This document shows, one piece after another, positions 33,884-36,293 of a stretch of 64,000 bases of DNA. The stretch spans positions 17,194 to 81,193 of the forward strand of contig CAZJQL010000003.1 in assembly GCA_964548665.1 (NCBI GenBank), written 5' to 3'. The translations under genes were made by a program, and so were the position numbers. The first letter of the stretch is position 1. The number at the start of each line of letters is the position of its first letter. Below the pieces are notes generated by a model, which ran no database searches, was not told the DNA's origin, and saw only the letters and a program-made list of their open reading frames with translations. This stretch comes from an uncultured Methanosarcinales archaeon. GTDB lineage: Archaea; Nanobdellota; Nanobdellia; Woesearchaeales; 21-14-0-10-32-9.

Positions 33884-34903
33884 TCAAGAAAGTAATTTAG
33901 GATAATCTCCTTTTTGTAATGATAATGTTAAATTTTTTAATATATCAGACAAATGTTTATTGGGGCCATCAAATAAATCGTAACCTTTAGATTTCAACCA
34001 AGAATCATTAAAAACCGAATTTAAATATCTTAGACCTGTATCTCCAACAATAACAACTTTTGGACCTTCAATGAAGTATTTTTTAGCTGCTGACAAAAGC
34101 ATACCTGTTGAAGAACCGAGTAAAAGACCTTTTTTCGCAAATAATTTTGCTTCGTGAATAGCATTAAAGTCAGAAACTTCTACAACATCATCAATTACTT
34201 CGAAATTCAAAACAGGAGAAACAAAGTCTTCACCCACACCTTCAATTAAAGTATCTGTCTCTTTAAAGGATCTTTTTAAATGGTGAAATGCTGAATATAA
34301 TTTTCCAGAATCAGGTGTGACGCCAATTATTTTTGTATCTGGTTTGAATTTCTTAAAATATGCGCCAATACCAGAAACAATTCCTCCCGTACCCATACCA
34401 ATAAACACGGCAGCAACATCAGGTAAATCTTTATGAATCTCAGGCGCCGTATATAATTCATGAGCTTTTGGATTCCATTCGTTTTCAAACTGATTGACAA
34501 AATATGAGTTTGGAATGCTCTCATGAATTTTTCTAGCAATTGACTTCATGCTTTGATCAGACTGTGATTCCGCATAATAATCCGCTATAACAACATTTGC
34601 ACCTAATGCCTTTAATGTTTTTAATTTTTCTTCACTTATTGAAGATTCAGCAACACATATAAATTCATGTCCTCTTTGTGCAGCAAGTAGTGCAAGACCT
34701 ATACCTAGATTTCCTGAACTATATTCTATAATAACGTCTCCTTTTTTTAATTTACCAGTTTTCTCAGCTTGTTCTAGTATGTATTTAGCAACCCTATCTT
34801 TTATAGAAAAACCAATATTATCAAATTCTAATTTAAGGTATATATCATCATATCGTAGCATTCGCGTATTTCCTATCAAATCTTCTAATTTTTCAAATAT
34901 CAT
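33884..34903 (-). CDS. PLP-dependent cysteine synthase / cystathionine beta-synthase family (fold type II) enzyme
   Basis: PLP-lysine motif FSIKDRVA, SSGNLGIGLALLAAQRG, and the phosphate-binding loop GMGTGGIVSGIG. I prefer the start at ATG 34903 (MIFEKLEDLIGNT), 4 nt after the stop of the upstream gene; the ORF-track start is 34948. Confidence 0.8.
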   Translation of the reverse strand: MIFEKLEDLIGNTRMLRYDDIYLKLEFDNIGFSIKDRVAKYILEQAEKTGKLKKGDVIIEYSSGNLGIGLALLAAQRGHEFICVAESSISEEKLKTLKALGANVVIADYYAESQSDQSMKSIARKIHESIPNSYFVNQFENEWNPKAHELYTAPEIHKDLPDVAAVFIGMGTGGIVSGIGAYFKKFKPDTKIIGVTPDSGKLYSAFHHLKRSFKETDTLIEGVGEDFVSPVLNFEVIDDVVEVSDFNAIHEAKLFAKKGLLLGSSTGMLLSAAKKYFIEGPKVVIVGDTGLRYLNSVFNDSWLKSKGYDLFDGPNKHLSDILKNLTLSLQKGDYPKLLS

Positions 34904-34907
34904 ATAA

Positions 34908-36293
34908 TCACCATAAAATCTCGCTTTTCTCCTGAAAAAATATATCAAACATTTTTATATCAGGCACAAACAATCTCGGACCTTTTGAAATAATATCAAA
35001 ATTCTTTTTCTTTCCTGAATACTTAGGAATAGTCCCATAACAATTTAGAACCTTATTATTTCTATTCCAGCCATAATATTTTTCAAAAGGTAAAAATGGT
35101 ACATCGAAATTATTTACCTTTTCGTCACTTAACACATCATAATTTATACCTATTTCTTCTACGATTTGTTTTTTTAATTTATCTTTTTTTACTTCTGGTA
35201 TTCTAAAATCAAATCTAAGATCATTTTCATTTATTTGTTCTGCATCTAACAACCTCCCAATTATGTTTATGTATTTGTCGTTTATACCATTATCAAATTT
35301 TGAAATTACAGATTTGTTCCAATCAATATTTGGATAATTTTTTAATGCATCTCCTGCATTTATAGAACCATAAACTAAGACTGGATCAAATGCTAATAAA
35401 GGCATACTGGATACTTGCCTACCAAAAACATTATCCAATACAAATCCAACTCTTTGGCATTTTGGACAGTCTCCACAATTATAGTTTTCATATTCCCAAC
35501 ATGAAATCATATTTGCAATAGTATCAAAATCAGTTAGCTTTTCAAGAGCCATATATACTGCATTTGTATGAATGCTTTGTATAGGTAATTCAATTTCAAA
35601 ATCTTTCAAACCTAGTGACCTCATATAATTTTTGTGCAAATCTATTGATTCCTTAGATTCAAGAGGAACTAGGCTGCTTTTTATTTCAGAAAATTCCCAT
35701 GCTGTATCCCATTGTAAACCATATGCTATTCTGCTTGGATGCTGATTTTTAACATCAAAGTACGGCGCCAAAAAGGTAACACCTATATCATTTGATTCTA
35801 AAAATAATATGTTGTTGTTTAAATTTTTATACGAATTTGGATTAACTTTCTTAAACAATTCTGAATCGTGTATAACATCCCATATTTGATATTGTTTCTT
35901 AGTTTTTTGTCCGGAATAATCTATTGAAAATCTTGCAATTTTTGATTTACCCTCTAAATTTAATATTTTTTCCACTAAACTCGAATCCTTTCCTCCACTA
36001 ACTCCTAGAAATATAAATTCTGAATTTAATTCAGTAGGTTCATAAAGATTCTTTTTTTCTTCAAAAAAATTTGCTTCAGTTAATTTTTTTCCATTAACTC
36101 CTACAAACAACTTACTAACAATTTTCGTTAAATCCTTAATAAAATCCTCGCTTTGCCCTGATAGAGGATAATTAACTTTTATTACATCAGAATAACCCAA
36201 ATCAGTAATTGCCCATCCAGTCAAACTAGATATTATAAGCTCCGAGCCTATTTCTGAACCTTTTGTTTTTGAAGAAAAATTATACTCTTTCAC
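34908..36293 (-). CDS. PP-loop ATP pyrophosphatase, QueC-like core with extra N- and C-terminal regions
   Basis: SGGKDS PP-loop in FLGVSGGKDSSLV (about residue 100). About 175 aa downstream is C-x8-C-x2-C-x2-C (SCWEYENYNCGDCPKCQR), the same spacing as the QueC zinc site. It is 461 aa against about 220 for QueC. GTG start. Confidence 0.6.
   Translation of the reverse strand: MKEYNFSSKTKGSEIGSELIISSLTGWAITDLGYSDVIKVNYPLSGQSEDFIKDLTKIVSKLFVGVNGKKLTEANFFEEKKNLYEPTELNSEFIFLGVSGGKDSSLVEKILNLEGKSKIARFSIDYSGQKTKKQYQIWDVIHDSELFKKVNPNSYKNLNNNILFLESNDIGVTFLAPYFDVKNQHPSRIAYGLQWDTAWEFSEIKSSLVPLESKESIDLHKNYMRSLGLKDFEIELPIQSIHTNAVYMALEKLTDFDTIANMISCWEYENYNCGDCPKCQRVGFVLDNVFGRQVSSMPLLAFDPVLVYGSINAGDALKNYPNIDWNKSVISKFDNGINDKYINIIGRLLDAEQINENDLRFDFRIPEVKKDKLKKQIVEEIGINYDVLSDEKVNNFDVPFLPFEKYYGWNRNNKVLNCYGTIPKYSGKKKNFDIISKGPRLFVPDIKMFDIFFQEKSEILW

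Follow-up and report, generated by a model that had tools for sequence, protein, structure and literature searches.

A rare QueC-fold protein family encoded next to a CysK-family pyridoxal phosphate enzyme in archaea and bacteria

Results

The gene pair

Two adjacent genes on the minus strand of a 64-kb stretch of archaeal DNA (64,000 nucleotides of contig CAZJQL010000003.1, denoted here as the window) are the subject of this study. The upstream gene (34908..36293) encodes a QueC-fold PP-loop ATP-pyrophosphatase-like protein of 461 amino acids, as assigned from the open reading frame (ORF), Pfam, the AlphaFold 2 (AF2) fold, Foldseek and invariant residues. The downstream gene (33884..34903) encodes a fold-type II pyridoxal phosphate (PLP) enzyme of the CysK/CBS/SbnA group with 339 amino acids, for which beta-replacement activity is predicted on the basis of PALP and NCBIfam scores. 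The PP-loop ORF reads from 36293 to 34908 with GTG as start codon, an ATG at 36306 being out of frame, and terminates with a TGA at 34910-34908. Four nucleotides (ttat) further on the PLP gene begins with an ATG at 34903; an alternative TTG start, which would yield 354 residues, is less likely because the closest PLP homologues comprise 341-342 amino acids.

The SGGKDS motif of the PP-loop is formed by residues 99-104, and the segment CWEYENYNCGDCPKCQR contains the cysteines C265, C273, C276 and C279. Gly101, Asp103 and all four cysteines are invariant in the 28 aligned members of the PP-loop family, which argues against a chance occurrence of these motifs. The protein consists of an N-terminal α/β extension (residues 1 to ~90), a QueC-like core (~90-282) and a C-terminal extension (283-461) harboring the conserved motif PFLPFEKYY.W.R.NK.LNCY. 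Both extensions, of ~90 and ~180 amino acids, respectively, are conserved within the family.

An initial annotation had described a 461-residue protein with SGGKDS, long extensions on either side of the QueC core and a stop codon 4 nt from the start of a PLP gene with the FSIKDRVA motif, and in these respects it agrees with the ORF found here. Its reading of a C-x8-C-x2-C-x2-C cluster, spaced like the zinc site of QueC, about 175 residues past SGGKDS is right as to the four cysteines, while the first spacer is C-x7-C and the cluster begins 161 residues after the PP-loop. This spacer varies from 7 to ~10 residues across the family and is also x7 in the canonical QueC of Laceyella, a genus in which a further family member is found.

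Relation to QueC and other PP-loop families

QueC (PF06508) is the only Pfam family matched by the PP-loop protein at E ≤ 0.1 (27.1 bits, cut-off 22, residues 98-281). With the QueC equivalog model of NCBIfam (TIGR00364) it reaches 19.3 bits and thus fails the cut-off of 150.3. The AF2 model, calculated with 28 homologues, has a predicted local distance difference test score (pLDDT) of 89 and a predicted template modelling score (pTM) of 0.88. Its best Foldseek matches in the PDB are the QueC structures 2pg3 and 3bl5 (E 4e-5, 219 columns, 15-17% identity), which cover the central core only, and in BFVD phage QueCs rank highest. ThiI, Cap9, PH1257 and argininosuccinate synthase follow with far weaker scores, Cap9 (9nto_B) at rank 15 with a probability of 0.75. 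Outside the core the whole-protein model finds no PDB match for either extension, nor does the separately modelled segment 283-461 (pLDDT 82, best E 2.5). At the sequence level, a search of PDB sequences with the single protein returned nothing, and the matches of the family profile were limited to the PP-loop (~30 residues) of TtuA, MnmA and NadE. The alignment with the true QueC of Laceyella is confined to the C-terminal half of the core (hhalign E 1.3e-3, probability 19%); there C265, C273, C276 and C279 coincide with SCY..CGECDSC of the canonical enzyme. The Laceyella genome keeps this true QueC (275 bits), as part of a separate QueE-QueC pair, besides its PP-loop copy.

The genomic surroundings were inspected for deazaguanine biosynthesis as well. 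Within the 64-kb window no queD, queE, folE or tgt is present, and queD, queE and folE are likewise missing from all cassette loci examined. The host genome (0.89 Mb, 100% complete) lacks both PTPS/QueD and a canonical QueC and possesses one tRNA-guanine transglycosylase (TGT) on another contig. The TGT match (C16:6645-7667, L028) holds one in-frame TAA, and the match to a GatB/E-type gene in the same genome (C13:22006-22891, L046/L047) is composed of two overlapping pieces, one of them with a TAA; split genes, frameshifts, assembly errors or read-through could account for these stops.

Accordingly, the 461-residue protein possesses a QueC-like core and is not a 7-cyano-7-deazaguanine synthase, given a TIGR00364 score of 19 vs 150 bits, a genome without QueD or QueC, and the real QueC retained by Laceyella. 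This bears out the initial annotation, which had taken the protein for an oversized QueC-like enzyme outside queuosine biosynthesis with no queD, queE, folE or tgt nearby. Neither asparagine synthase, LarE, sugar amidotransferases, ThiI nor TtuA gave an HMM (hidden Markov model) or fold match competitive with QueC. The known defence homologues of QueC were rejected as well: at E ≤ 0.01 no PADLOC model, including QatC, Cap9 and Dpd, matches the PP-loop or the PLP protein, and their partners (QatABD, CD-NTase, TGT-like proteins) do not occur in the cassette loci. The PP-loop protein is a founding member of a very rare, unannotated QueC-fold family with a new partner and new domains.

The PLP partner enzyme

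The PLP protein matches PALP with 194 bits over residues 23-300 and carries FSIKDRVA, with the PLP lysine in SxKDR, as well as the SSGNLG substrate loop and the GTGG phosphate loop. It scores below the cut-off of every NCBIfam equivalog concerned, namely cystathionine beta-synthase (CBS; 244.9 bits, cut-off 510; a CBS domain is absent), CysK (TIGR01139; 222.7 bits, cut-off 350.95), SbnA (TIGR03945; 213.7 bits, cut-off 349.95), CapA (208 bits) and TIGR01138 (134.3 bits, cut-off 394.2). An SbnB-like partner was not found in any locus examined. Sequence identity amounts to 48% with the partner enzyme at locus L010 and to 39-42% with generic CBS/CysK proteins. Phylogenetically, the partner PLP enzymes form two clades with high support (100/99 and 100/100), joined by a weaker branch (86/90); one of the clades also includes three proteins whose gene surroundings were inspected in part. 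The motifs SxKDR, SSGNLG and GTGG are shared with SbnA, CysK, CBS and the cysteate synthase CapA, from which the window enzyme differs by its scores, by the lack of a CBS or heme domain and by its membership in partner-specific clades.

Linkage and gene fusions

Eleven independent prokaryotic lineages were distinguished (the window; L010; L042; L037; L011/L016; L015; L005-L007; L008/L009; L001-L004/L013; L012/L018; L014). The PLP gene adjoins the PP-loop gene in 11 of 11, in both gene orders. In addition, P0022 is a PALP-QueC-like fusion encoded by one eukaryotic gene (L017 10001-13929; GCA_002082055.1, contig MTYJ01000367.1), which must contain introns since 829 amino acids are spread over 3.9 kb, and whose neighbours encode eukaryotic domains (F5/8 type C, PAN, DCX-guanylate cyclase). 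Apparently the fused pair was transferred into a eukaryote, presumably a tardigrade to judge by the assembly. A further fusion, P0012, joins the QueC-like PP-loop protein to a methyltransferase. The coupling to a CysK-family enzyme proposed in the initial annotation is hence upheld by adjacency and fusion: the linkage is kept in relatives, and no PP-loop family matches better than QueC.

In one uncultured Bacilli lineage, with a genome of 1.1 Mb, two ORFs of 160 and 89 amino acids take the place of an unbroken partner PLP gene (L001 8946-10001, L013 8865-9900). This is seen in several samples, with the PP-loop and HIT genes intact; an archaeal-type aspartyl-tRNA synthetase (AspRS) is absent from this genome.

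More distant relatives of the PP-loop protein (P0041-P0052, E ~1e-12 to 1e-20) comprise 585-653 amino acids. One such relative (L038 36-2749) has a methyltransferase directly upstream and no PLP gene within its 3-kb contig. The family may be broader than its PLP-paired core.

Recurrent partners of the cassette

The pair is embedded in cassettes of three to seven genes. A VanT/Alr-like racemase of ~330 amino acids with the lysine motif of alanine racemases is present in eight of the 11 lineages; its closest solved structure is the VanT serine racemase (E 3e-8). An assignment of this PLP protein as an MccE-like decarboxylase was rejected, as the profile finds only racemases. A methyltransferase dependent on S-adenosylmethionine (SAM) is found in seven lineages, and a CysE-like serine O-acetyltransferase at L037 (149 bits) and L015. 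An AMP-nucleosidase-like PNP_UDP_1 protein and APRT/HGPRT-like phosphoribosyltransferases recur, and MFS or ABC exporters, GNAT proteins and glycosyltransferases occur in some loci. The methyltransferase and the nucleosidase are fused at L005 (11819-13171) and separate at L007 (10231-11573). By NCBIfam the nucleosidase resembles AMP nucleosidase (103 bits) rather than methylthioadenosine/S-adenosylhomocysteine nucleosidase (38 bits), and it may remove a by-product or act on an AMP conjugate. No gene typical of a defence sensor or effector is conserved across the cassette loci.

A HIT hydrolase and an archaeal-type AspRS are each found in 6/11 lineages and at least one of them in 9/11, often in the same operon as the pair; the two lineages without either are represented by a 4.5-kb contig and by a locus ending in an IS66 element. 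The AspRS lies in or beside the cassette at L005, L007, L011, L015, L037 and L042 and, where measured, scores 443-553 bits (cut-off 353), L015 and L042 being assigned by similarity and domain content. The cassette-linked AspRSs retain QSPQ and motifs 2 and 3. In Laceyella the cassette copy (553 bits) is additional to a bacterial-type AspRS (887 bits), and AsnRS and LysRS (asparaginyl- and lysyl-tRNA synthetase) are also encoded. At L015 the genes for racemase, PLP enzyme, PP-loop protein, methyltransferase, acetyltransferase, HIT and AspRS follow one another in a single co-directional operon, while at L042 the PP-loop and PLP genes, in this order, face the genes for HIT, methyltransferase, nucleosidase and AspRS.

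The HIT proteins of the cassettes are HinT-type, with HxHxHxx and an N-terminal CxxC; in the aligned proteins of the window, L001, L008, L010 and L015 the residues C3, C6, H94, H96 and H98 are invariant. The MccH clade is characterized by the signature ExxxxxHxHxK, in which lysine replaces the third histidine (PMC7157772). Immunity of the MccH type was rejected, as five of five cassette HITs possess HxHxH in place of this signature.

Distribution and mobility

The family is very rare. Nine PP-loop relatives were retrieved by a word-indexed search of 5.8 billion proteins and 56 matches by an exhaustive profile search of 1.84 billion representative proteins, none of the 56 being a canonical QueC; genome contigs were scanned for members with a profile built from nine sequences. 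The named members, from Laceyella sacchari/tengchongensis (WP_102991158.1) and Elizabethkingia anophelis (MDV3769049.1), are all annotated as 'hypothetical protein'. Others originate from metagenome-assembled genomes of Oscillospiraceae and Bacilli and from a contig whose PLP protein is labelled Gracilibacteria by NCBI. The cassette hosts thus comprise the archaeon, this Gracilibacteria-labelled contig, Bacillota, Bacteroidota and one eukaryotic-type contig. A literature search yielded no paper on the family or the cassette.

Among 40 relatives of the host archaeon, including seven of the same genus, the PP-loop family is absent, and therefore the gene is an acquired accessory gene in this host. 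In Laceyella tengchongensis (NZ_FXTU01000005.1; L011 1-14164, L016) a four-gene cassette, encoding the PLP enzyme, the PP-loop enzyme, the racemase and the AspRS, is located right after prophage genes for tape-measure, Dit and tail-fibre proteins and an amidase, from which it is separated by a TPR regulator; the same stretch is contained in IMG/VR as a viral contig. The Elizabethkingia cassette (L037) is surrounded by genes for ArdA, resolvase and recombinase, in a region read as resembling an integrative and conjugative element, and other cassette loci adjoin insertion sequence elements.

The locus in the window and its host genome

Upstream of the PP-loop gene and divergent from it, a HinT-type HIT hydrolase is encoded on the plus strand (36451..36855; PF01230 71.8 bits, CxxC, HIHTHIF). 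The AT-rich intergenic region of 157 bp (36294..36450) presumably contains the promoters for both directions of transcription. A predicted plus-strand tRNA-Ala(GGC) gene (33643..33716) lies at the outer border of the accessory region; a direct repeat of this tRNA gene that would indicate an integration scar was not found inside the region, nor were terminators. Together, the pair and the divergent HIT gene form a self-contained three-gene unit in the window.

The HIT gene separates the pair from a neighbouring minus-strand operon (36864..42905), delineated from its ORFs and domain matches, which is of interest as context only. It encodes a Nudix protein, an S51 peptidase, a P-loop kinase-like protein, a diverged AspRS paralogue, a radical SAM/SPASM protein, a 532-residue protein of unknown type and a second kinase-like protein. 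None of these seven genes recurs beside the pair in other loci. The radical SAM/SPASM gene (39774-40700) gives weak PADLOC matches to prokaryotic viperin models (45.8 bits) and is flanked by the P-loop kinase-like genes (37971-38564 and 42273-42905), with which it may form a nucleotide-modifying module separate from the pair.

An AspRS of the archaeal, non-discriminating type (432 amino acids; NF003483 524.6 bits, cut-off 353) is encoded on the plus strand at 43014..44312, 6.7 kb from the pair. A second, bacterial-type AspRS (783 bits) is located on another contig of the host genome. Of 19 relatives, only four have the archaeal type, and the bacterial type (570-612-residue frames) was detected in at least seven. 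In the same-genus genome G008 an AspRS gene adjoins a gene homologous to one located nearby in the window, a weak synteny. A 'cassette AspRS' clade including the window enzyme was considered and dropped, with a small tree unresolved and many AspRSs from outside the inspected cassette loci closer. The window AspRS may belong to the cassette system, which is uncertain.

In total, the 0.89-Mb genome contains five genes of the class IIb synthetase type (bacterial AspRS, archaeal AspRS, the diverged AspRS paralogue, AsnRS and class II LysRS), located at 43014-44312, 38564-39784 and 60576-62147 of the window and on contigs C7 and C16 (L023, L026). Two full AspRSs of different types are unusual for a genome so small.

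Discussion

Proposed function of the cassette

The reading considered best here, to which a probability of about 0.5 is assigned, is that the PP-loop protein and the CysK-family enzyme work as an obligate pair at the core of a small, horizontally mobile cassette, in which serine is turned into a beta-substituted alanine that the PP-loop enzyme activates with ATP, the HIT protein and the AspRS protecting the producer. Serine would be activated as O-acetylserine, for which some relatives have a dedicated CysE-like gene. The PLP enzyme, judged by its family, would then form the beta-substituted alanine by beta-replacement, and in most bacterial versions the VanT/Alr-like racemase would invert it. 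By homology to QueC and other PP-loop enzymes, the PP-loop protein would adenylate a carboxylate or amide of this amino acid, and the activated group would be passed to a nitrogen nucleophile; conceivable outcomes are amide or nitrile formation, ring closure or a stable adenylate. The initial annotation had likewise proposed that a carboxylate is adenylated, with N or S chemistry as the next step. The product or its adenylated form would interfere with the formation of aspartyl- or asparaginyl-tRNA. Self-protection would be conferred by the HinT-type HIT, acting on nucleoside-monophosphate conjugates, and by the extra archaeal-type AspRS. As far as gene content can tell, the metabolite made by the cassette is probably toxic, derived from serine and directed against the charging of tRNA with aspartate. 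Among cysteate, beta-cyanoalanine, a Dap-derived lactam, a cycloserine-like ring and a thiocarboxylate route, the sequence allows no choice of product.

This reading is based on the adjacency and fusions of the pair and on gene content, namely a PLP enzyme of the replacement type, only one ATP-dependent enzyme, CysE-like and racemase genes, exporters and the extra copy of a housekeeping gene. Such an extra AspRS is encoded in addition to the housekeeping copy in Laceyella, and the host genome has two types, the window copy being possibly native. Protection by a HIT enzyme has a precedent, as MccH has been proven to confer immunity to an aspartamide-adenylate that inhibits AspRS (PMC7157772).

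Several observations weigh against an antimetabolite cassette of this kind. The chemistry of the pair, its target and its product are predictions from gene content. In the window the racemase, methyltransferase and acetyltransferase of the relatives are missing, and the AspRS is situated 6.7 kb away on the other strand. With 50-56% identity to many AspRSs from outside the inspected cassette loci vs 42-43% to the cassette-linked bacterial ones, this AspRS may be native to the genus. Two genomes, G042 (with a broken PLP gene) and G043, carry the cassette without any archaeal-type AspRS, and the cassette HITs are ordinary HinT-type proteins outside the MccH clade. A full-length AspRS could also be biosynthetic, supplying Asp-AMP or Asp-tRNA, or serve as a bypass. 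Finally, an antibiotic pathway would be unusual in an archaeon with a reduced genome of symbiont size.

A more specific variant, unlikely in our estimation, departs from the second half-reaction of QueC, the activation of a carboxamide with ATP. Instead of proceeding to a nitrile, the enzyme would leave AMP attached, resulting in a stable aminoacyl-amide-adenylate on the PLP-made amino acid without the need for a precursor peptide or MccB. Such a microcin-C-like warhead would be directed against bacterial-type AspRS, with HIT and the archaeal-type AspRS as protection. If true, it would represent a second, convergent route to aminoacyl-nucleotide antibiotics, spread on mobile elements from archaea to Bacteroidota.

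Alternative explanations

Homology itself supplies the strongest prior for an enzyme that has kept 7-deazaguanine as its substrate, since QueC comes closest in the HMM comparison as well as in the fold comparison. In this case, 7-carboxy-7-deazaguanine would be ligated to the amino group of the PLP-made amino acid, modelled on the amidation by Cap9/QatC-like proteins, which amidate a protein N-terminus, and the deazapurine-amino-acid conjugate would be converted into a nucleotide by a phosphoribosyltransferase or become the base at position 34 of Asp/Asn tRNAs, which would explain the non-discriminating-type AspRS. It fits that tRNA-Asp and tRNA-Asn are queuosine tRNAs, that genes for APRT/HGPRT-like phosphoribosyltransferases and for purine nucleosidase-like proteins are repeatedly part of the cassette, and that the toyocamycin pathway couples a QueC with a phosphoribosyltransferase. 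However, the complete host genome has neither QueD/PTPS nor QueC and hence no source of the deazaguanine acid, folE, queD and queE are missing from every cassette, and eukaryotic and Gracilibacteria-type hosts usually or probably lack the pathway. With only the C-terminal half of the core aligning to real QueC at a probability of 19%, and no PADLOC match to QatC, Cap9 or Dpd, we consider a deazaguanine substrate unlikely. Even less can be said for a housekeeping pair, that is, a divergent archaeosine/queuosine QueC placed by chance next to a normal cysteine synthase. The Pfam QueC score just above the gathering threshold and the TGT of the host genome would agree with it, but it is effectively excluded by the TIGR00364 score (19 vs 150), the CysK, CBS and SbnA scores below their cut-offs, the lack of QueD, the absence of the protein from 40 relatives, the adjacency and fusions conserved across domains of life and the real QueC kept by Laceyella.

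The AspRS could alternatively be taken as a substrate supplier. It would make Asp-tRNA(Asn), on which the PP-loop enzyme would activate the side-chain carboxylate while the PLP enzyme, in the role played by glutaminase subunits in other PP-loop amidotransferases, provides ammonia by beta-elimination; the pair would then be a new type of amidotransferase for tRNA-bound aspartate. QueC does form an amide from a carboxylate, using ATP and ammonia, the cassette-linked AspRSs are repeatedly of the non-discriminating type, and tight pairing or fusion is typical of a synthetase with an ammonia-donor subunit. On the other hand, the host genome already encodes AsnRS and a GatB/E-type gene, and Laceyella encodes AsnRS; the PLP enzyme most resembles replacement enzymes (CysK/CBS/SbnA), not dehydratases; two genomes have the cassette without such an AspRS; and the exporters, GNAT, racemase, acetyltransferase, methyltransferase and glycosyltransferases are left unexplained. 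Amidation of tRNA-bound aspartate is for these reasons regarded as very unlikely. A system of anti-phage defence or inter-element conflict, in which infection triggers a small molecule that stops translation and HIT and AspRS limit self-damage, accords with the known role of QueC-like proteins such as QatC and Cap9 in defence (PMC13376578; PDB 9nto). In Laceyella the cassette is located at one end of a prophage and is also contained in IMG/VR, AbiEii and PIN genes are near the L042 cassette and DpnII and NERD near L001, and the window pair adjoins an HD/Nudix pair and the weakly viperin-like radical SAM gene. Since PADLOC recognizes neither protein of the pair, no typical defence sensor or effector is conserved across the loci, and dedicated efflux pumps and glycosyltransferases better suit a secreted product, a role in conflict seems improbable.

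Comparison with known systems

QueC and ToyM (PDB 3BL5, 2PG3) share with the PP-loop protein SGGxDS in a Rossmann-like adenine-nucleotide α-hydrolase core and, at the end of this core, the four-cysteine ribbon SC[WY]...CGxCxxC. QueC is a single domain of ~220-240 amino acids, so that the 461-residue protein is about twice as long, and in contrast to QueC it has an apparently obligate PLP partner and no queD/queE context. The defence homologues, Cap9 of type IV CBASS, QatC of QatABCD and DpdC, have the QueC-derived fold in common with it, but their own partners are absent here and the conserved partner is the PLP enzyme. To our knowledge, all characterized QueC relatives (QueC/ToyM, DpdC, Cap9, QatC) act on 7-deazaguanines. 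The new family probably brings another class of substrates within reach of QueC-type ATP chemistry, in which a carboxylate becomes an amide or nitrile, because the QueC core is tied to an amino-acid-forming PLP enzyme in genomes unable to make deazaguanines, the absence of QueD and QueC having been shown for the host genome. For the host archaeon with its reduced genome, the cassette would be a rare example of an acquired specialized-metabolite module. In other cases, the combination of a synthetase and a nucleotide hydrolase in a cassette has pointed to antibiotics with a predictable target.

Microcin C production involves the adenylyltransferase MccB, the MFS exporter MccC, MccD/Mtn, MccE and the HIT enzyme MccH, the target being AspRS. 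The connection to AspRS and the HIT protein are common to both systems, and an MFS exporter, a GNAT protein and a pair of SAM enzyme and nucleosidase are also present in some cassette relatives. In contrast, the cassette contains neither a precursor peptide nor a ThiF/E1-like MccB, its HITs possess HxHxH instead of HxHxK, its fold-type III PLP protein is racemase-like and does not correspond to the decarboxylase domain of MccE, and its nucleosidase resembles AMP nucleosidase.

The pathway to D-cycloserine employs the acetyltransferase DcsE, the CysK-like synthase DcsD, the racemase DcsC, the ATP-dependent cyclase DcsG, the resistant target DcsI and the exporter DcsJ. Likened by gene types, the cassettes taken together follow the same logic, with a serine O-acetyltransferase, a CysK-family enzyme, a racemase, one ATP-dependent enzyme, an exporter and an extra housekeeping enzyme. 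The two systems differ in the ATP-dependent step (ATP-grasp in the D-cycloserine pathway, QueC-fold PP-loop here), in the racemase (DapF-like vs Alr/VanT-like) and in the extra housekeeping enzyme (D-Ala-D-Ala ligase vs AspRS), and genes for hydroxyurea formation belong to the D-cycloserine pathway only.

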